DNA of 45,378 bases. Source: Thermoanaerobaculia bacterium (GTDB lineage: Bacteria > Acidobacteriota > Thermoanaerobaculia > Gp7-AA8). Under the pieces are notes generated by a model. The model was not told where the DNA came from. It saw only the letters and a program-made list of their open reading frames with translations, and did no database searches. The position numbers and the translations under genes are program-made. The stretch is taken from the NCBI GenBank assembly GCA_036388835.1, contig DASVRB010000365.1:1-45378 (forward strand), given 5' to 3'. Below, piece after piece: positions 23,731-32,921 of this stretch (its first letter is position 1; every line of letters starts with the position of its first letter).

Positions 23731-24303
23731 ATGTCCGCACGCATACGCGAGCACGCGACGTATCAGGACCTGCTGAAGGTGCCGGACAACATGGTCGCGG
23801 AGTTGATCGAAGGGGAATTGTTCGCGTCACCGCGGCCGCGCATCCGTCACGCGGAGGCGCAAACGGAGCTGGCGGCGATCCTGCGCTCGACGTTCGGACG
23901 AGGCGGTGGCGGATCGGGCACGTGGCACATCCTCATCGAGCCGGAGCTTCACCTCGGCGCTGACATCCTCGTTCCCGATATCGCCGCCTGGCGCGTCGAA
24001 CGCGTCGGGCCGCGGATGCCCGACGTTGCGGCGATGACCCTCGCGCCCGACTGGGTCTGCGAAATCCTCTCGTCCTCCACAGCGCGCCTCGATCGGGCGA
24101 GGAAGCTCCCGGTGTATGCGAGACACGGCATCCCGTACTCGTGGATCGTTGCGGTCGATGAGCAGGTGCTGGAGGTCAAGCGCCTCGAGAACGGCAAGTG
24201 GACTGACATCGGAACCTTTGCGGCGGGTGACGTCGTGCGAGCGGAGCCGTTCGACTCGATCGAGATCGACATGACGCGCGTCTGGGGCCCACCCCCCTCT
24301 TAA
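23731..24303 (+). CDS. Uma2-family (DUF820) putative endonuclease
   Basis: [20 protein letters not shown]...PDIAAW...[35 protein letters not shown] matches the Uma2/PD-(D/E)xK pattern. Confidence 0.85.
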
Positions 24304-24860
24304 CGCGCGCGCTTCTCCAGCTCCGCGCCCACCTCCTCCCAACCGATCCCTTCATTCACCATCAACACCGACAGGTGAAAGACCAGATCGGCGATCTCGC
24401 TGATCGTTCGGTCGCGGCCCTCTCCTGATGCGGCGATGACGACCTCGGTCGCTTCTTCGCCGATTTTCTTCAGGATTTTGTTGCGGCCGGCGTTGAAGAG
24501 CGTTGCGGTGTACGAGCCTTCCGGCCGCGACTCGTAGCGCTCGCCGAGCACGCGCATCAATCGTTCGAGCGGCAGCGGTGGGACGTCGGCGAAGCAGGAG
24601 TCGGCGCCGGTGTGACAGGCAGGGCCCGCCGGCACGACCGTTACGACGAGGGCGTCGTTGTCGCAGTCGGTGGCGATGTGCACGACGCGCTGTGTGTTGC
24701 CGGAGGTCGCGCCTTTGTGCCACAGCTCGTTGCGGCTGCGGCTCCAGAACCAGGTCTCGCCGCTCTCGCGCGTCTTCGCGAGCGACTCTTCGTTCATGTA
24801 GGCGAGGGTGAGGATGGCGCCGCTGCGTGCGTCGCGGACGATTGCGGGGATGAGGTTCAT
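24300..24860 (-). CDS. hisI: Bifunctional phosphoribosyl-AMP cyclohydrolase / phosphoribosyl-ATP pyrophosphatase
   Basis: HisI part: [38 protein letters not shown]...CDNDALVV...CHTG. HisE part: SYTATLF...[17 protein letters not shown]. Confidence 0.93.
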
Positions 24861-26317
24861 CGGATGGGGATCCCTTCTGCGGCGAGGTATTGCTTCACGT
24901 CGCCAACGGTGAGCACGCGGTCGTGAAAGAGGGAAGCGGCGAGCACGGCCCGCGCGCCGCCGGATTCGATGGCGTCGCGAAAGTGGGTGAGGTTGCCGGC
25001 GCCGCCGGAGGCGATGACGCCGATCTGCAGACGCGAGCTGACGGCGCGCAACAATTCGATGTCAAAGCCGGAGCTGGTGCCGTCGCGATCGACGGAGGTG
25101 AGGAGGATTTCTCCGGCGCCGAGCTGCTCCGCTCGCACGCACCACTCCACCGCATCGACATCCGTCAGTTCTTTCCCGCCGCGCACAGCGGCGAACCCGC
25201 CCCTCGCATCACACGACAGGACCACCGCCTGCACTCCAAACTCCTCGGCGCATTCGCGGATGAGCTCCGGCCGGCGCAGCGCGGCGGTGTTGATGGCGAC
25301 GCGATCGGCACCGGCGCGCAGCAGCGCGCGGAAGTCGTCGATCGTGCGGACGCCCCCTCCGACGGTGAGTGGAATGAAGAGCGCGTCGGCCACGCGGCGA
25401 ACGGTGTCGAGCGCGGTCTCAGTAGCGCGATCGGTCGCGGAGATGTCGAGCAGCACGAGCTCGTCGGCACCTTCGGTTTCGTAGCGCATCGCGCATTCCA
25501 CCGGATCGCCTGCATCGCGGATCTGCTCGAACGAGACCCCCTTGACCACGCGGCCGTCGCGGACGTCGAGGCAGGGGATGACCCGCTCCGGAATCGCATT
25601 CGGCGTCGCCACGCGCGCCTGCGCTTGCGCGAGATCGAGCCGTTTTTCGAGCAATGCCTTGCCGATCACGCAGCCGCTCACATTGCCGAGGCGCGAGAGC
25701 GAGACCGCGTCGCTGATGGTGGAGACGCCGCCGGATGCGATCAGACGGACGCGGGTGAGCGCCCGCAGCTCGCGATAGAGCGTGAACGATGGACCGCGCA
25801 ACGCGCCGTCTCTCGAAATGTCGGTGACGAGCGCTTCGTCGATGCCGAGCGATTCGAGGCGCGCGAAGATCTCGGCAAGCGAGGACGACGAGGCGCGCTC
25901 CCAGCCGTCGGTGCGCACCACGCCGTCGCGCACGTCGATGGCCGGGATGATGCGCGTCGCGCCGAACGCGTTCACCAGCGATTCGAGCAGCGCCGGCGAT
26001 TCGGCGGCCACGGTGCCGACGACGAGCCGTTGCGCGCCGCAGTCGAGCCAGCGTTGCGCATCTTCGAGCGAGCGGATGCCGCCGCCGACCTGCACGATCA
26101 GCTCGCGTGAAGCGAGACGCCGCACGACGTCCGATTCAATCGGCCGGCCGCGGCGCGAGCCTTCGAGATCGACGACGTGCAGGCGCGAGCCACGCGGTAC
26201 GTCGAGCGCATCGAGCACCTGTTCGGGCTCGCCGTACACGCGCGCGGTCGCAAAGTCGCCGTGCGTCAGTCGCACGACCTTACCGTCGAGCAGATCGAGG
26301 GAGGGGATCAGTTGCAT
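24857..26317 (-). CDS. hisA/hisF: Fused HisA (ProFAR isomerase) - HisF (imidazole glycerol phosphate synthase cyclase subunit), single 486-aa ORF
   Basis: aa 1-233 are HisA-like ([17 protein letters not shown]...IPAIDVRDG...ASGGVS...GCVIGKAL). There is a 10-aa linker. aa 244-486 are HisF-like ([16 protein letters not shown]...LTVGGGVRT...ASGGAG...ASLFH...[10 protein letters not shown]). No stop codon at the junction (25589-25618). Confidence 0.9.
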
Positions 26318-26898
26318 TGCACGAAGTTCCTGAGGACGCGCAGTCCGGCGGCCGACGATTTTTCGGGATGGAACTGCACGCCGAACACGCGTTCGCGCTG
26401 CACGGCGGCGGTGAAGCGGCCGTTGTATTCGGCCGCCGCGATCTCGTTGTCCGCGTCACGTGCGGCGTACGAGTTCACGAAGTAGAAGGAGGTGCCGTCG
26501 GCAATTCCGTCGAAGAGGATTGCCTCTTTTCCACGCACGCGGTTCCAGCCGATTTGCGGGACCGGCAGCGGCCCGTCGATGCGTCGAATGCTGCCGCGAA
26601 TCAGGCCGAGCCCGCGCGTCTCGCCGTGCTCGTACGAAACGTCGAAGAGAAGTTGATGACCGACACAGATACCGAGGAGAAACGCGTTGCGCTCGACGGC
26701 AGTGGTGATGGCGGAGTCGATGCCGCTCTGCGCGAGCCACGCACGCGCGGCCGCAAACGAGCCGACGCCCGGCAGCACGAGCTTCCCCGCGCGCGCGACG
26801 ACGTCCGGATCGCGCGACAGCTCGATCGTGGCGCCGGCGGCACGCAGCGCGCGCGCGATGTTGGCGGTGTTGGCGACGGGAGAATCGATGAGGATCAA
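26308..26898 (-). CDS. hisH: Imidazole glycerol phosphate synthase glutaminase subunit
   Basis: ILIDSPVANTANI..., GICVGHQLL (catalytic Cys), VQFHPEKS. TTG start at 26898 with AGGAG 4 nt upstream; TTGA overlap with the hisB stop. Confidence 0.92.
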   Translation of the reverse strand: MILIDSPVANTANIARALRAAGATIELSRDPDVVARAGKLVLPGVGSFAAARAWLAQSGIDSAITTAVERNAFLLGICVGHQLLFDVSYEHGETRGLGLIRGSIRRIDGPLPVPQIGWNRVRGKEAILFDGIADGTSFYFVNSYAARDADNEIAAAEYNGRFTAAVQRERVFGVQFHPEKSSAAGLRVLRNFVQCN

Positions 26899-27482
26899 AT
26901 CACTCCTTTCGTGCTCGGCACCTCGTTGCTCACGACTTCTTTCGCGGCGCGGACGGCGATCGCGAAGGCTTTGAAGATCGCTTCGGCGGCGTGGTGTCCG
27001 TTGCGGCCGCGCAGGAGGTCGACGTGCACGTTCGCGGCGCATTTGTTCGCGAATGACTTGAAGAACTCTTCGACCAGCGCGAACGGAAAATCCTTGTGGA
27101 TGAGCAGCATCTCGCGATCGAGCGGCGCTTCGAAGACGAGGAACGGGCGGCCGGAGAAGTCGACCACCACGCGCGCCATCGCTTCGTCGAGCGGGACGTA
27201 GGCGTGGCCGAAGCGGCGGATGCCGCGTTTGTCGCCGAGTGCCTGCGCGAACGCCTCGCCGAGGACCAGGCCGACGTCTTCGACCGTGTGGTGATAGTCA
27301 ATGTGTGTATCACCTGTCGCGGCGACGTCGAGGTCGACCTGCGCGTGCCGCGCGATCGCGTCGAGCATGTGCGAGAGGAAGCCGATCGGCGTGTCGATGT
27401 TCGCGCGGCCGCTGCCGTCGAGATTCACCGTGATGTTGACCGACGTTTCTTTGGTGACGCGTTTGATGGTGGCGGTTCTCAT
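26895..27482 (-). CDS. hisB: Imidazoleglycerol-phosphate dehydratase
   Basis: MRTATIKRVTKETSVNITVNLDGSG...IDYHHTVEDVG...GRNGHHAAEAIFKAF; 195 aa. ATGA overlap with the hisC stop. Confidence 0.94.
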   Translation of the reverse strand: MRTATIKRVTKETSVNITVNLDGSGRANIDTPIGFLSHMLDAIARHAQVDLDVAATGDTHIDYHHTVEDVGLVLGEAFAQALGDKRGIRRFGHAYVPLDEAMARVVVDFSGRPFLVFEAPLDREMLLIHKDFPFALVEEFFKSFANKCAANVHVDLLRGRNGHHAAEAIFKAFAIAVRAAKEVVSNEVPSTKGVI

Positions 27483-28495
27483 GCGAGCTCCTGCAGTGCG
27501 GCGAAAAAGCGGTCGTTCTGTTCGGGCGTGCCGATCGAGACGCGCAGCGTCGCGTCGAGCGGCGTCTTGCGGATCAGAATGCCGCGCTCGAAAAAGTCGT
27601 CGAACGTGGCGCGTGTGCGGAAGGCGATGAAGTTCGCGCAACTCGGATAGACGGCGATCGAGCGAATGCCGCGCATCGCGGCGAGCAGCCGTTCGCGCTC
27701 CGCGACGATCCGCGCGACATTCGCATCGCGCATGTCCCGGTTCTCCAGCGCCACCGCCGCGATGTGCTCGCTGATGACGTTCAGCGAATACGGCAGCTTC
27801 ACCTTCCGAATCTCGCGACACGTCGCGGCGGTGGAGGCGAGCCAGCCGGTGCGCAGCGCGGCCAGTCCCCACGCTTTCGAGAAGGTGGAGAACGTCACCA
27901 GCCGGTCGTCGAGCGGCGGCAGCTCATCGTCCGCAAAGTCGCCGTACGCGCGGTCGAACAGCACCGTTGCGCCGCTGTCGAGCAACCGTTGCAGGCCACC
28001 GTGCGCGAGCACGCTGCCGGTCGGATTGTTCGGCGAGCAGACGATCGCGACCGCGCCATCGAGTGTCGCGAGCGCCCTGAGCATTTCGTCGAGCGGCAGC
28101 AATCCCGACGTGGGATCGAAATCGATCGGCACCGGCAGGCCCCCAGCGATCGTGACGAGCTTCTCGTACAGCGCGAACGTCGGACGCGGAAAGACGACCG
28201 GCGTGCCGGGGCCGACGAACGCGGCAATTGCCGCAGCGAGCAGCTCGTTCGAGCCGTTGCCGACCAGGATGTTCTCCGCCGCGAAGCCGTACGCATCGGC
28301 GAGCGCGGTGCGCAGCGCGGTCGATTCGAAATCGGGATAGAGGTTCCATGGCCGCTCCGCCATGCGTGCGAGCGCCTGCTCCTTCAACTCGCGCGGAAAG
28401 TCGTACGGCGATTCGTTTTGATTGAGCTTGATCTCCGCTTCGCGAAGCTCGAGCGTGTAGGCGGTCATTGCGGCAACGGTGGCGCGCGCGCTCAT
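27479..28495 (-). CDS. hisC: Histidinol-phosphate aminotransferase
   Basis: IKLNQNESPYDFP...GNGSNELL...CSPNNPTG...FSTFSKAWGLAALRTGW. ATG 28495 overlaps the hisD stop (ATGA). The 646-aa track ORF is an upstream extension through hisD. Confidence 0.92.
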   Translation of the reverse strand: MSARATVAAMTAYTLELREAEIKLNQNESPYDFPRELKEQALARMAERPWNLYPDFESTALRTALADAYGFAAENILVGNGSNELLAAAIAAFVGPGTPVVFPRPTFALYEKLVTIAGGLPVPIDFDPTSGLLPLDEMLRALATLDGAVAIVCSPNNPTGSVLAHGGLQRLLDSGATVLFDRAYGDFADDELPPLDDRLVTFSTFSKAWGLAALRTGWLASTAATCREIRKVKLPYSLNVISEHIAAVALENRDMRDANVARIVAERERLLAAMRGIRSIAVYPSCANFIAFRTRATFDDFFERGILIRKTPLDATLRVSIGTPEQNDRFFAALQELA

Positions 28496-29724
28496 CGCGT
28501 GCCTCCGTTCAGCGCGGACGCGGGGACAGGCAGGATTGCCTCTCCTCCACTTCTTGCTTCGATCGACTCGGCGTGTTTCGGCAGACCTTCGAACCGGGCG
28601 ATGCGCGCGGCGGCATCGGCGATGTCGCCGAGCTTCTCCTCGCTCAACATCACCACGTTCGAGCGCTTCACGAAGTCGTACACGCCGAGCGGCGAGAAAA
28701 AGCGCGCGCTGCCGGCGGTCGGCAGCACGTGATTCGAGCCGATCGCGTAATCGCCTGCCGCCGGGGCGGAGAACGAGCCGACATAAATCGCGCCGGCGTT
28801 CTGCGCACGATCGGCGATCGACGCCGCGTTTCGCGCGTGAATCGAAAGGTGTTCCGGCGCGATGCGATCCGAGAGCGCGATCGCTTCTTCGACGGAATAG
28901 GCGACGAGATTCAGCGTCGCGCGGACGTCGAGCGGCGCGCCGACGGAGATGCAGATCACGGCGGAATCGGGACCGTGCTCCTGTTGCGCGTCGAGGTCCG
29001 CCTGCACCAGTGCCGCGTTCGCGCTGTCGTCGGCGATCACGATCAATTCGGTCGGGCCGGCGGTCATGTCGATGCCGACTTCGCCGATGAGCCGCGTCTT
29101 CGCGGCGGTCACGTACGCGTTGCCGGGACCGGCGATTTTGTCGACGCGGCGCAGCGACTCGGTGCCTAACGCGAGCGCGGCGATGCCGGCCGCGCCGCCG
29201 CAGCGATAGAGCTCCGTGATGCCGAGGCGGTTGCAGACGTAGTGCAGCTCCTCGCGCGAGGCGGCGGCGGGAGTGGTCGCCACAACCAGCTCCGGCACGC
29301 CCGCGATGCGCGCGGGAACCGCGCACATGATCAGCGTCGAGATGTAGACCGCGCGTCCGCCCGGCACGTACAAACCGGCGCGCTGCAGCGGGCGCACGCG
29401 GTGCGTGACCCCCTCCCATTCGTACGACCGCGGCAGTTGTTGGAGGTGAAACGCCTCGACGCGCGCGATCGCCAGATCGAGTGCATTCGCGAGCTCGCGA
29501 TCGATGCTCACCCGGCGCGGCTCGATCCGAATGGCGTCGGGTGCGAGCTGCACGTTGTCGAAGCGGGCGATCTGCTCGGCGACGTACGCGTCACCGCGTG
29601 CGCGCACGCCGGCGATCATCTCGTCGGCGACGCGGAACGCGTTTTCATTCGAGGCGTTGCGGCGCTGTTCCAGCGCGCGCAGCGCGGCTTCTGCTTCAGG
29701 CGATGAGGGTCGGAACCATTGCAT
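28492..29724 (-). CDS. hisD: Histidinol dehydrogenase
   Basis: LYVPGGRAVYISTLIM...KIAGPGNAYVTAAK...AGPTELIVIAD...QQEHGPDS...APEHL...GDYAIGSNHVLPT; 410 aa. Confidence 0.94.
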   Translation of the reverse strand: MQWFRPSSPEAEAALRALEQRRNASNENAFRVADEMIAGVRARGDAYVAEQIARFDNVQLAPDAIRIEPRRVSIDRELANALDLAIARVEAFHLQQLPRSYEWEGVTHRVRPLQRAGLYVPGGRAVYISTLIMCAVPARIAGVPELVVATTPAAASREELHYVCNRLGITELYRCGGAAGIAALALGTESLRRVDKIAGPGNAYVTAAKTRLIGEVGIDMTAGPTELIVIADDSANAALVQADLDAQQEHGPDSAVICISVGAPLDVRATLNLVAYSVEEAIALSDRIAPEHLSIHARNAASIADRAQNAGAIYVGSFSAPAAGDYAIGSNHVLPTAGSARFFSPLGVYDFVKRSNVVMLSEEKLGDIADAAARIARFEGLPKHAESIEARSGGEAILPVPASALNGGTR

Positions 29725-30337
29725 TGCGGGCTTCCTCGATGCGCGCGATCAGCTCGCGCGCGGTTTTGTTGTTCGTTCTGAGGGCATTCGTCGCGACGAT
29801 GAGCCGCGGCGTGATGTCAGTGACGAGCTCCTGCAGCTCGAGCTTGTGGACGCGCGCCGTCTCGCCGCTTTCGACGAGGTCGATGACGTGGGAGGTGAGA
29901 TGGAGCACCGCCGCGAGCTCGACCGAGCCGCCGAGGGGGACGATCTCCGCGCGCAGGGACAACGAGTCGAGATACTGCCGCGCGATGCGCGGGTACTTGG
30001 TCGCGACCGTCGCGCGATGCGACAGGGGAGGCGCGCCCGTGGCGCCGATGACCATCATCCGGCAGCGTCCGAACGGCAGCTCGACCGCCTGCGCGGCGCT
30101 GCATTCCTGCTCGAGAATTTGATCGAGTCCGGCCACGCCGGCGTCGGCCGCGCCGTGCTCGACGTACACCGGCACGTCGCAGTCTTTGACGAAGATCCAT
30201 TCGATCGCACCGCGCGTGAAGACGAGCTTGCGCGTGGCGAGATCGGCGCTGTCGGGCACGTCGTAGCCGGCCGCCGCGAAGAGCGCGAGTGAGGGAGGGA
30301 GGAGACGTCCTTTCGGAATCGCGATTCTCATCATCAA
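29696..30337 (-). CDS. hisG: ATP phosphoribosyltransferase, short (HisZ-dependent) form
   Basis: MRIAIPKGRL...DCDVPVYVEHGAADAGVAG.D...VATKYPRIARQY...LGGSVELA; 213 aa, without the C-terminal regulatory domain. Confidence 0.92.
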   Translation of the reverse strand: MMMRIAIPKGRLLPPSLALFAAAGYDVPDSADLATRKLVFTRGAIEWIFVKDCDVPVYVEHGAADAGVAGLDQILEQECSAAQAVELPFGRCRMMVIGATGAPPLSHRATVATKYPRIARQYLDSLSLRAEIVPLGGSVELAAVLHLTSHVIDLVESGETARVHKLELQELVTDITPRLIVATNALRTNNKTARELIARIEEARNAMVPTLIA

Positions 30338-31047
30338 TCCTCGAGCGCGTCGACGGTCAGGGTGAAGCCGACCGCGGGGGCCGCGTAGCCGAAGCGCGCG
30401 TAGAGCGCGTCGTAGCGGCCACCCTGCGCCAGCAGCGTGCGGCGATCGGCGGCGTAGAGCCAGAAGCGCAGGCCGGTGTAGTAGCCGGCGTCCGTGTCGT
30501 CGCTGTCGTGCCGCACGAAGCGCGCATCGCTTGCTAGCGCGCGCTGCAACTCGTCGTCGCGCTCGACGGAGCCGATGACGCTGTAGACGACGAGCGCGTT
30601 CTCGACGAGCGAGGCGGCGATCTGCAGCAGCTCGACGTCCGCTTCAGCCGAGGCGTCGCCGATCAGCTCTGCACCGATCTGGAACAGCTCGCGATTGCTG
30701 CCGAGACGTGAGGCTTCGCAACGAATGACATCGCCGCGATAGAACACGCGCAGCGGCAGGTTGCGCTCATCGAGCGACGGTGCGAGCGCGCGCGCCACCA
30801 TCGGCGTGAAGTCGGAGCGGACGGCCACGAGCTCGCCGTCGCGGTCGGTGAAGCGGTAACTCTGCCGCGCATCGTTCGCGGTGACGCCGGCATACGGTTC
30901 CGCGAAGTCGATGATCGGGAGCACGACCTCGGCGAAGCCCGCGTCTTCGAGCGACGAGACGATCCGCGTCTCGATGCGTCGTCGCCGCGCCGTCTCTTCG
31001 ACGAGCAGCGGGCGCGCTCCGGTTGGATATCTGAATGTTGTGGCCAT
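30334..31047 (-). CDS. hisZ: ATP phosphoribosyltransferase regulatory subunit HisZ (compact, 237 aa)
   Basis: Class-II aaRS-like motifs (PTGARPLL..., YRFTDRDGELVAVRSDFTPMVAR, RVFYRGDVIR, ELFQIGAELIG, GGRYDAL...AVGFTL). ATG at 31047; 4-nt overlap with the hisG start. Confidence 0.8.
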   Translation of the reverse strand: MATTFRYPTGARPLLVEETARRRRIETRIVSSLEDAGFAEVVLPIIDFAEPYAGVTANDARQSYRFTDRDGELVAVRSDFTPMVARALAPSLDERNLPLRVFYRGDVIRCEASRLGSNRELFQIGAELIGDASAEADVELLQIAASLVENALVVYSVIGSVERDDELQRALASDARFVRHDSDDTDAGYYTGLRFWLYAADRRTLLAQGGRYDALYARFGYAAPAVGFTLTVDALED

Positions 31048-31051
31048 CAAG

Positions 31052-31085
31052 TCAAAAACCTCTTCCGTGGGATCAGGAAGAGGTT
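31052..31085 (-). terminator. Intrinsic terminator (attenuator) immediately upstream of hisZ
   Basis: Minus-strand RNA AACCUCUUCC-UGAUCCCAC-GGAAGAGGUU followed by UUUGAC. 10-bp stem, 5-U run. It ends 4 nt before the TTG/ATG of hisZ. Confidence 0.7.
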
Positions 31086-31151
31086 GTCGACTCGGCGCTG
31101 CTCAGCGTTGGCCCCTTCCTTTCGGCGGGGCACAAACGACACGCACCCCTA

Positions 31152-31199
31152 TCACTCGTGGTGATGGTGGTGGTGGCGGTGAGCGCGGTTGAACGTCAT
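31152..31199 (-). CDS. hisL: His operon leader peptide, MTFNRAHRHHHHHHE
   Basis: ATG ACG TTC AAC CGC GCT CAC CGC CAC CAC CAC CAT CAC CAC GAG TGA on the minus strand. 7 His codons in 8 positions, 104 nt upstream of hisZ and followed by alternative hairpins and a terminator. No clear SD. Confidence 0.75.
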   Translation of the reverse strand: MTFNRAHRHHHHHHE

Positions 31200-31244
31200 T
31201 ACGGCGAGGAGTGTAGCAGTGGAGTCAAGCGAGATAATGAAAGG

Positions 31245-32921
31245 ATGGAAGTGAGCGCTGCCGAACCGACTCGTTCGAACGTCATTCGTTACGCCGGAGG
31301 GGTGTCGCTGGCGACGATCCTGATCGTCGGGCTGTGGCCGGGACTCGTGCCGAAGCTGTTCGGTACCGGCAAATTCCTACCGCACTCGTTCTGCTATCTC
31401 CGCGATCCGGCGCTGGTCTGGACGCACGCTGCCACCGACATGCTGATCGGCCTCTCGTACGTCGCCATCTCGGCGATGCTCACGCTGCTCGTGCACCGCG
31501 CGCGGCGCGACATTCCGTTCAGTTGGATCTTTCTCGCCTTCGGTCTCTTCATCGTCGCGTGCGGCGCGACGCATTTCATGGAAGTGCTGGTGCTGTGGAA
31601 GGCGGCGTACTGGCTTTCCGGCGCGGTGAAGATCGTGACCGCGGTCGCGTCGGTGGCGACCGCGCTCGTGCTGCCGCCGCTGATCCCGAAAGCGGTGGTG
31701 CTGGTGCGCGAGGCGAAAAAGTCGGAGCAGCGGCGCATCGAGTTGCAGGAGCGGCTCGAAGCGCTGGAAGCGGAGCGTGCGGCGCGCGCGGAAGCGGAGG
31801 AGGCAAATCGCGCGAAAGACGCGTTCCTCGCCACGATCTCGCACGAGCTGCGCACGCCGATGACGTCGATCCTCGGATGGTCGTCGATGCTGCGCGGCGG
31901 CTCACTCGACGACGAGACCGCGCGCACCGGCGTGCTCGCGATCGAGCAGAGCGCGCGCGCGCAGGCGCAACTCATCGACGATCTGCTCGACGTCTCGCGC
32001 ATCGTCGCCGGGAAGCTCGCGCTGGAGTTGCGGCGCTCCGATCTGGCCGACGTGGTCCGTTCGGCCGTCAACACCGTCGCGCTCGCGGCAGAGACGAAAG
32101 AGGTGCGCATCGAAGTGGTCCTGCCGCCGTCGCCGGTGACGCTGGTCGCCGATGCGGCGCGGCTGCATCAGGTGGTCACGAACCTGCTGTCGAACGCGGT
32201 GAAATTCACGCCGGCGCAAGGCACGGTGCGCATCGAGCTGCAGCGCGAGGACGGCGACGGCGTGCTCAGTGTCACCGACACCGGCATCGGCATCGATCCG
32301 CAATTCCTGCCGTTCATCTTCGATCGCTTCACGCAGGCCGATACGTCATCGACGCGCGGCTTCGGCGGACTCGGGCTCGGCCTCGCCATCGTGCGGCATC
32401 TCGTCGAATTGCACGGCGGCTCGGTGCGCGCCGAGAGCGCCGGCAGCGGGCAGGGGAGCACGTTCACCGTTCGCCTGCCGCTCGTCGCGTCGATCGCGGA
32501 GACGAGCGGGCTCGCGCACGATTCGGCCGCCACGGTCAGCCTGCGCGGCATGCACCTGCTGCTGGTCGAAGACGAGCCGCTCGCGCGCGAGATGATGATG
32601 GTCGTGCTGACGCAATACGGTGCCGATGTGCGTGCGGCCGGCTCCGTGCGCGATGCGATGCGGCTGCTCGATGCCGCAACGCCGGACGTGATCATCACGG
32701 ACATCGCGATGCCGGAGGAGGACGGCTTTTCATTTCTCAAAAGGCTGCACCTCCGCGATGCGGAGCGCGGAAAAAAGACGCCGGTGATCGCGGTCTCGGC
32801 GTTGACGCGCGCCGACGAACGGACGCGGATCATGCTGGCCGGATTCGACGATTACCTGCAGAAACCGGTGCAGCCGGCGCGTCTCGCGGAAGCGATCGCG
32901 CGGAAGTTGCAACGCACCTGA
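31245..32921 (+). CDS. Hybrid sensor histidine kinase with ETR1-like (ethylene-binding-type) N-terminal transmembrane domain
   Basis: Three TM helices with TDMLIGLSYVAIS, FIVACGATHFMEV and KIVTAVASVATAL. Coiled coil; HisKA (FLATISHELRTPMTSILGW); HATPase_c (DTGIGI, GGLGLGLAIV); C-terminal receiver (LLLVEDEP...ITDIAMPEEDG...KP). Start at ATG 31245 or GTG 31251; the upstream track extension overlaps hisZ/hisL. Confidence 0.88.
   Translation: MEVSAAEPTRSNVIRYAGGVSLATILIVGLWPGLVPKLFGTGKFLPHSFCYLRDPALVWTHAATDMLIGLSYVAISAMLTLLVHRARRDIPFSWIFLAFGLFIVACGATHFMEVLVLWKAAYWLSGAVKIVTAVASVATALVLPPLIPKAVVLVREAKKSEQRRIELQERLEALEAERAARAEAEEANRAKDAFLATISHELRTPMTSILGWSSMLRGGSLDDETARTGVLAIEQSARAQAQLIDDLLDVSRIVAGKLALELRRSDLADVVRSAVNTVALAAETKEVRIEVVLPPSPVTLVADAARLHQVVTNLLSNAVKFTPAQGTVRIELQREDGDGVLSVTDTGIGIDPQFLPFIFDRFTQADTSSTRGFGGLGLGLAIVRHLVELHGGSVRAESAGSGQGSTFTVRLPLVASIAETSGLAHDSAATVSLRGMHLLLVEDEPLAREMMMVVLTQYGADVRAAGSVRDAMRLLDAATPDVIITDIAMPEEDGFSFLKRLHLRDAERGKKTPVIAVSALTRADERTRIMLAGFDDYLQKPVQPARLAEAIARKLQRT

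Follow-up and report, generated by a model that had tools for sequence, protein, structure and literature searches.

Introduction

How is histidine biosynthesis regulated in the Acidobacteriota, a phylum of abundant soil bacteria that is almost unstudied genetically? This question is raised by a 45,378-nt stretch of DNA from a Thermoanaerobaculia bacterium (GenBank assembly GCA_036388835.1, contig DASVRB010000365.1, positions 1 to 45,378; referred to here as the window), in which a short histidine-rich open reading frame (ORF) and a set of alternative RNA pairings lie on the minus strand directly in front of hisZ, the first gene of a his operon. A first-pass annotation made from the sequence read this element as a ribosome-mediated his attenuator in a genome that does not look enterobacterial. 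The source organism is indeed an acidobacterium of the class Thermoanaerobaculia, and every structural prediction of that reading that could be tested in silico was supported. With a probability of roughly 85%, sequence features and folding models point to a histidine-responsive, ribosome-mediated transcription attenuator that would control the whole hisZGDCBH(AF)IE operon, its transcription start, leader translation, termination and response to histidine all being predicted.

The paradigm for such elements is the his leader of Salmonella and E. coli, whose six segments, A to F, can form five mutually exclusive helices, the last of which is an intrinsic terminator. Available portions of the literature describe His leader peptides in Gammaproteobacteria (hisG), in the Bacillus cereus group and C. 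difficile (hisZ, hisS paralog; PMC2965389, PMC4833913), and in Actinobacteria. Those of the B. cereus group were proposed by Naville and Gautheret 2010 (PMC2965389) solely on the strength of comparative genomics.

Results

A histidine-rich leader ORF is kept in front of hisZ

The leader ORF (31199-31152, minus strand) reads ATG ACG TTC AAC CGC GCT CAC CGC CAC CAC CAC CAT CAC CAC GAG TGA and would encode the hisL-like peptide MTFNRAHRHHHHHHE*. It has 15 codons, with 7 His in 8 codons, and its stop lies 104 nt before the hisZ ATG (31047). The ORF, its coordinates, the His count and the 104-nt gap had all been given by the first-pass annotation, correctly to the base. The regulatory run of His codons (CAC CGC CAC CAC CAC CAT CAC CAC; 31158..31181, minus strand) also takes part in RNA pairing, as judged from the sequence and from the fold of the free RNA, and is called segment 0 below.

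Related loci were collected with a HisZ protein scan over one genome per species, which gave 80 loci, all from Acidobacteriota and nearly all labelled Thermoanaerobaculia. Upstream DNA is included in 79 of them; these form the sample for the leader counts. An alignment of 79 leaders was also made. A protein search with HisZ, aimed at other classes of Acidobacteriota, gave close relatives throughout its best 120 of 1086 matches. The first-pass annotation had proposed looking for the His run in related genomes, and it is kept at 78 of the 79 loci, as 5-8 His codons in 8 within a short ORF at the same position, with 93-130 nt between the end of the leader ORF and hisZ in nearly all loci. These leaders are 11-19 codons long and start with ATG (59), GTG (18) or TTG (1). 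His accounts for 512 of their 1185 sense codons (43%; CAC 345, CAT 167). The final His usually stands two codons ahead of the stop, which is UAG in 69 of 78 leaders, and in 68 of 78 the stop codon contributes its G as the first base of the downstream motif GGGGUGC, so that the ORF ends in a fixed register with segment A of the RNA. Outside the His run, the peptides of the 78 leaders vary in sequence and length while the reading frame is kept. Because the remainder of the peptide varies, the target of selection is the run of His codons, together with the frame and its register relative to the RNA, and not a peptide fold.

Of the 79 aligned leaders, 78 have an in-frame start codon. The remaining one, L060, has ATA at the site of the leader ATG in its close relatives L059 and L077; an error in sequencing, use of a non-canonical start codon or decay of the leader may explain this. 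L075 is the sole related locus without a leader; there, REP-like palindromic repeats (CCGGTGGCAAGCGCCGAAGGCGCGCTGCCACCGG and its complement, L075:1630-2050) lie between a tyrS-like gene and hisZ.

The run is also rare outside this position. About 500 kb of related loci contain just 6 further His runs, none in a comparable context except a duplicate in L023. This is an inverted second copy of L023's own leader at the contig end (L023:1-120, minus strand), which is probably an assembly artefact, namely a terminal inverted duplication. Short ORFs of the window, scanned for runs of Trp, Phe, Thr, Leu, Cys or Met codons, gave nothing convincing.

Five conserved RNA segments follow the leader and can pair in mutually exclusive ways

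The RNA that links the leader ORF to hisZ shows the same degree of conservation as the ORF itself. In the alignment, five conserved blocks separated by variable spacers follow the stop codon, and every segment listed by the first-pass annotation is found where it had been placed. On the minus strand of the window, segment A (GGGGUGC, 31149-31143) starts 2 nt after the leader stop. Segment B (GUGCCCC, family GYGCCCC; 31133-31127) can pair with A or with C. Segment C (AGGAAGGGGC, 31120-31111), which appears in the alignment as (A)GGAAGGGGC or GGACAAGGGGCGC, can pair with B through its GGGGC and with D through AGGAAGGGG, the latter helix being the candidate antiterminator. Segment D (AACCUCUUCCU, 31075..31085) has two roles, as the 5' arm of the terminator and as the 3' strand with which C pairs in the antiterminator, and the stretch CCUCUUCCU lies within it at 31083-31075. 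Segment E (GGAAGAGGUU plus a U-run, 31054..31066, with UUUUU at 31058-31054) forms the 3' arm of the terminator and the U-tract. The terminator arms are AACCUCUUCC (31085-31076) and GGAAGAGGUU (31066-31057), followed by UUUGAC; the same two arms make up blocks D and E of the alignment, there followed by U4-7. Between C and D, inside the loop that the antiterminator would close, the folds of minimum free energy (MFE) contain a small spacer hairpin (CGCUGAGCAGCG, 31095..31106), which falls in a variable part of the alignment.

These segments serve more than one helix each: B is common to A:B and B:C, C to B:C and C:D, and D is shared by the antiterminator and the terminator. The leader region as a whole folds with z = -4.99 against dinucleotide shuffles. 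Two states can be followed through the alignment. The terminator state (B:C + D:E), which is also the RNAalifold consensus, has 96.3% of its cells paired versus 47-70% for slid partners, and eight of its pairs have changed on both sides. The antiterminator state (A:B + C:D) has 95.6% paired versus 44-69% for slid partners. Compensatory alternation can be seen in single column pairs, such as columns 97-172 of the antiterminator (GC 40, AU 22, GU 9) and columns 83-107 of B:C (CG 46, UG 19, UA 7).

Covariation was also measured with a swap test, in which the energy of each helix with its own partner was compared with that obtained using partners from other loci (2000 permutations). Cognate partners were better for C:D (-15.6 versus -13.6 kcal/mol, about 1.9 better), for D:E (-19.8 versus -17.7 kcal/mol) and for B:C (-16.7 versus -16.1 kcal/mol), and 0 of 2000 permutations did as well in each of these three cases. 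For A:B, cognate and non-cognate energies were the same (-14.9 versus -14.9 kcal/mol) and 500 of 2000 permutations were as good. The mutually exclusive pairings proposed in the first-pass annotation are therefore conserved in the alignment that it had called for, with covariation in B:C, C:D and D:E.

These observations bear on whether the peptide itself might be the functional product. The His run is conserved and poly-His peptides bind metals, so a functional micropeptide, for example a metal binder, could be imagined, with the hairpin as an unrelated structural feature or an insulator. Such a role is highly improbable: the His run is the sole conserved feature of the peptide, the leader never occurs apart from the his operon and the five-segment RNA, the RNA after the ORF is conserved to the same degree, and the 45-kb window holds no second short ORF with a His run besides the hisZ leader.

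A ribosome on the His codons favours the antiterminator in the nascent RNA

Can the position of a ribosome decide between the two states? The nascent RNA of the 79 sequences was folded up to the end of segment D, before segment E exists, under masks that represent a ribosome footprint. When the footprint covered a His codon 15 nt or more upstream of the stop, the median pairing probability P(C:D) was 0.92, and it exceeded 0.5 in 61 of 79 sequences. With the footprint on the stop codon the median fell to 0.003 (above 0.5 in 8 of 79), and without a ribosome it was 0.02 (above 0.5 in 15 of 79). The fold of the leader with and without masking, suggested in the first-pass annotation, thus gives the antiterminator in the nascent RNA only with a ribosome on the His codons. 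Folding of the complete leader at equilibrium was dropped as a test of the switch, since the terminator always wins and the states are not told apart.

The MFE structures of the window follow the same pattern. With a ribosome on the His run, A:B (8 bp) and C:D (9 bp) form and enclose the small spacer hairpin; with a ribosome at the stop, B:C forms and D is left unpaired. In the free RNA, the His run pairs with A (UGAUAGGGGUG), B pairs with C, and D is again unpaired. This last pairing, in which the His-codon run takes up GGGGUG in untranslated RNA, had been missed by the first-pass annotation and turns the element into a six-segment relay. The CAC repeats are complementary to the GGUG of segment A, and segment A is paired with leader codons in 69 of 79 RNAs in the absence of a ribosome.

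The complementarity of the repeat to segment A implies a role at the level of RNA, and the third-position variation between C and U could equally be tolerated through G-U pairs. It might then be asked whether the CAC/CAU repeat is translated at all, or whether it instead binds a protein or another RNA, or belongs to an RNA that senses a metabolite or tRNA, with that factor driving the same folds. This is very unlikely. In 78 of 79 leaders an in-frame ATG, GTG or TTG stands 11-19 codons before the stop and at a fixed distance from the -10 element, the register of the stop with segment A is fixed in 68 of 78, and the N-terminal codons of the ORF differ between loci in sequence and number with the frame preserved. 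Nor does a known sensor RNA take its place: Rfam 15 at gathering score gave no family match, T-boxes and riboswitches included, in the window or in 20 diverse relatives, and a permissive scan of 30900-31400 (E<=10) found neither RF00514 nor a T-box (RF00230). The permissive scan did list Thr_leader, which was rejected as a chance-level match (14.4 bits against a cutoff of 55 bits, E=5) brought about by ACC/CAC repeats plus a terminator.

The predicted terminator hairpin contains the only Shine-Dalgarno-like sequence for hisZ

In the window, the terminator hairpin has a free energy of -15.7 kcal/mol and a loop of 9 nt, and is followed by UUUUUGAC. A hairpin with a U-tract is present in 79 of 79 sequences: its stem has 9-17 bp, the median dG is -18.1 kcal/mol, and 4-7 of the 8 nt that follow are U. 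Since the upstream gene is divergent and none is co-directional, the hairpin has nothing else to terminate.

As the first-pass annotation had pointed out, the 3' arm of this hairpin contains the only sequence for hisZ that resembles a Shine-Dalgarno (SD) motif, and the sequence bears this out with GAGGU in segment E. The start codon of hisZ follows the GAGG/GGGG of the 3' arm by 9-12 nt in 69 of 79 sequences. In five divergent loci (L072, L076, L078, L079 and L080), the hairpin and U-tract are kept and the hisZ start lies about 20-65 nt downstream where it is clear; hisZ has its own clear SD in L072, L076, L078 and L080, and the start in L079 is ambiguous. Two arrangements therefore coexist in the clade, one with the terminator fused to the ribosome-binding site (RBS) and one with the two separate.

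Does the hairpin act on transcription, or does it merely hide the hisZ RBS? In a purely translational attenuator, with a logic of the ermC type, a ribosome stalled on the His codons would open D:E and thereby expose the RBS. The position of the sole SD-like sequence and the 9-12 nt spacing speak for this, as does the fact that the hairpin always forms at equilibrium and would mask the SD on a full-length mRNA unless leader ribosomes keep stalling. However, a mask for an RBS has no need of the 4-7 U that follow the stem in 79 of 79 sequences, and the stem has A's on its 5' side and U's on its 3' side, as canonical intrinsic terminators do. The five divergent loci keep hairpin and U-tract with a detached hisZ start, four of them with an SD of their own, which argues that the hairpin is not merely an RBS mask and that termination has a function independent of it. 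Translational control alone is thus unlikely, and the overlap with the RBS may be a compact arrangement by which translational control is added; such a layer, in addition to termination, may well exist, though the data do not require it.

The leader is predicted to be translated from a leaderless mRNA

How would ribosomes load on the leader? An SD motif upstream of the leader start was found in 0 of 78 leaders, in keeping with the first-pass annotation, which saw no obvious SD in the window. An extended -10 element (TGCTACACT, 31210..31218, minus strand) precedes the leader, with its -10 hexamer TACACT (31215-31210) ending 10 nt before the leader ATG. In 72 of 78 sequences the leader is preceded by a TAnnnT hexamer whose end is 7-12 nt from the start codon, TACACT being found in 49, and 66 of these 72 also have TG at -15/-14 or a TTGACA-like hexamer (at least 5/6) at 16-18 nt. 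The extended -10 TG occurs in 23 leaders, including that of the window, and the TTGACA-like -35 at 16-18 nt in 44. There are accordingly two promoter architectures: L031-L048 and other loci have GGAATTTGACA-N17-TACACT, and the clade of the window has the extended -10 TGCTACACT with no good -35. The hexamer TTGACT at 31229-31224 was rejected as a -35 element, for it lies 7 nt from the -10 and reads TTGCTT in L081; a TTGACA-like hexamer 7 nt upstream of the -10, likewise too near for a -35, is also present in L003, L007, L015, L019, L024 and L025.

With the transcription start taken at about 7 nt after the -10, the predicted 5' untranslated region (UTR) is 0-5 nt long, and the leader would therefore be translated from a leaderless or near-leaderless mRNA. 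From this promoter spacing and the lack of an SD, we infer that the leader mRNA is essentially leaderless. The first-pass annotation had noted that only 45 bp separate the leader ATG from the start of the divergent kinase gene. This distance is confirmed by the sequence (kinase ATG at 31245) and by the gene call in L081. The first-pass annotation had offered two ways out, a promoter inside the kinase gene or a nearly leaderless leader mRNA. The second is favoured by the conserved -10 element within the 45-bp gap; the weak -35 region reaches the kinase gene. The compact promoter fits the gap, and the leader and kinase promoters must overlap because the two start codons are only 45 bp apart.

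Between the window and its closest relative, L081 (HisZ 91% identical), the stretch of about 170 nt that runs from the TGCTACACT -10 to the hisZ ATG contains 2 differences, versus about 20 in the 90 nt upstream of the -10 element. This disparity points to purifying selection on the stretch from the -10 to hisZ.

The element heads a complete his operon

The operon downstream of the leader (24300..31047, minus strand; assigned from Pfam matches and ORF coordinates) consists of hisZ (31047-30334), hisG, hisD, hisC, hisB, hisH, a fused hisA-hisF ORF and hisIE, and its genes are tightly packed or overlapping. HisZ was identified by Pfam PF13393 (E=1e-48); its conserved start is the ATG at 31047, and a TTG is also present at 31050. 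The protein (30334-31047, minus strand) has 237 aa, and within the Pfam tRNA-synt_His model its best match is to the first half. Lengths of 223-287 aa among the best 120 of 1086 homologues show that this short HisZ is typical of the clade and does not stem from truncation. At 24857-26317 (minus strand), a 486-aa ORF has two His_biosynth (PF00977) domains, and hisA and hisF appear to be fused in it.

On the other side of the leader, the divergent gene at 31245-32921 (plus strand) encodes a hybrid histidine kinase with ETR1_N (PF25487, ethylene-receptor-like), HisKA, HATPase and receiver domains. At the far end of the operon, a gene for a putative endonuclease of the Uma2 family (23731-24303, plus strand) is convergent and overlaps the end of hisIE by a few bases.

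Discussion

A proposed co-transcriptional relay from histidyl-tRNA to hisZ

The elements described above can be combined into the following scheme for a histidine-responsive transcription attenuator. Transcription would start at or a few nt before the leader AUG, from the extended -10 promoter, and because the transcript starts at or near this AUG a ribosome can load at its 5' end without an SD. When charged tRNA-His is plentiful, the ribosome would reach the stop codon and cover segments 0 and A; B:C would form and leave D free, D:E would follow, and RNA polymerase would terminate just before hisZ. When charged tRNA-His is scarce, the ribosome would stall on the His codons and cover only segment 0, so that A:B and C:D form. 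Once C:D is in place, E could not build the terminator; polymerase would enter hisZ, and the SD-like GAGGU in E would be exposed. In RNA that is not translated, 0:A and B:C would pair and D:E would again terminate.

Several points weigh against this scheme and keep its probability below certainty. The support is computational throughout, consisting of the elements themselves, their conservation, covariation in three of four helices and the thermodynamics under masks. The A:B helix is 97.5% paired but invariant, and so is backed by conservation without covariation. The permutation, swap and shuffle controls ignore phylogeny, which makes them supportive and not a formal proof. Under the stalled-ribosome mask P(C:D) stays below 0.5 in 18 of 79 sequences; for the window itself, the ensemble gives the antiterminator a probability of 0.1-0.58 at one truncation point and the MFE structure adopts it when the RNA is slightly longer. 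At equilibrium, the terminator is the outcome for the complete leader under every ribosome mask, and the decision must therefore be co-transcriptional, as in classical attenuators; the switch must rely on kinetic trapping during transcription and on transcription-translation coupling. The U-tract of the window is short (UUUUUGAC), and 18 leaders begin with GTG on a presumed leaderless mRNA. A simple consensus scan of the window reported neither a promoter nor a terminator here, which is accounted for by the 9-nt hairpin loop (the limit of the tool is 8) and by the weak -35.

The overlap of terminator and RBS also suggests, tentatively, a switch that works at two levels on a leaderless mRNA. 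A single hairpin would then serve as intrinsic terminator and also cover the hisZ RBS. The leader ribosome would, by its position, set read-through first and then, on full-length mRNAs, in which this hairpin is thermodynamically favoured, hisZ translation in each round of leader translation. By analogy with rnTrpL of Sinorhizobium, it is a possibility that the terminated leader RNA of about 150 nt acts in trans.

Relation to known leaders and other tRNA-responsive elements

Compared with the enterobacterial hisL leader (RF00514, His_leader), the element shares a short leader peptide with a His run (E. coli MTRVQFKHHHHHHHPD), predicted control of the whole his operon, and a predicted antiterminator that forms when the ribosome is on the His codons, with the terminator forming when the ribosome is at the stop or absent. 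Taken as an analogy, the six-segment relay is logically isomorphic with the Salmonella/E. coli his leader. There are also clear differences. In sequence and structure no homology to hisL is detectable, RF00514 being without a match even at E<=10, so that the element resembles the enterobacterial attenuator in its logic but falls outside that Rfam family. Unlike hisL, the window element precedes hisZ, which belongs to a short-form HisG system, and not hisG; its leader mRNA has no SD and a predicted transcription start 0-5 nt before the leader; its stop codon overlaps the second segment or directly adjoins it; the terminator's 3' arm also provides the SD region of hisZ; and the host belongs to the Acidobacteriota.

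The hisZ leader of the Bacillus cereus group (PMC2965389) is similar in gene context, for it too has a short ORF with His codons in the hisZ 5' UTR followed by a premature terminator. It differs in belonging to Firmicutes, and in the description consulted, on which this comparison rests, no leaderless arrangement is reported. For the leaderless start, the polycysteine short ORFs of mycobacteria (bioRxiv 10.1101/834739) offer a parallel: as far as the consulted part of that preprint goes, they too are the first cistron and carry codons of the amino acid made downstream. They concern Cys and Actinobacteria, whereas the leaderless status proposed here comes from promoter spacing. The his T-boxes of Firmicutes and Actinobacteria (PMC9413887) resemble the element in their signal, the charging of tRNA-His, and in their terminator/antiterminator output. 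In contrast to the element described here, T-boxes bind uncharged tRNA directly and need neither a ribosome nor a leader ORF.

The first-pass annotation also asked whether the same element was already catalogued for this lineage. It has no Rfam match, and in the literature searched, from which subscription-only papers were absent, no His leader is described in Acidobacteriota.

Meaning for the biology of Thermoanaerobaculia

What, then, does the element add? The mechanism is textbook, and the element reveals nothing new about attenuation itself. It is, most probably, a well-conserved example of a his attenuator, a known mechanism, in a phylum without a described case in the literature searched, and both the leaderless leader mRNA and the RBS-fused terminator have precedents elsewhere. 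For the phylum, the 2010 survey (PMC2965389) recorded an assigned function for almost none of the attenuators predicted in Acidobacteriota. In the class Thermoanaerobaculia, the leader now provides a clear candidate for cis-regulation of an entire amino-acid operon. With 79 sequences, the alignment would suffice as the seed of a new RNA family, and the element would be of use to annotators, who at present leave this region of 150 nt blank. If the element works as predicted, it implies that transcription and translation are coupled in Thermoanaerobaculia, and that leaderless initiation serves a regulatory ORF there.

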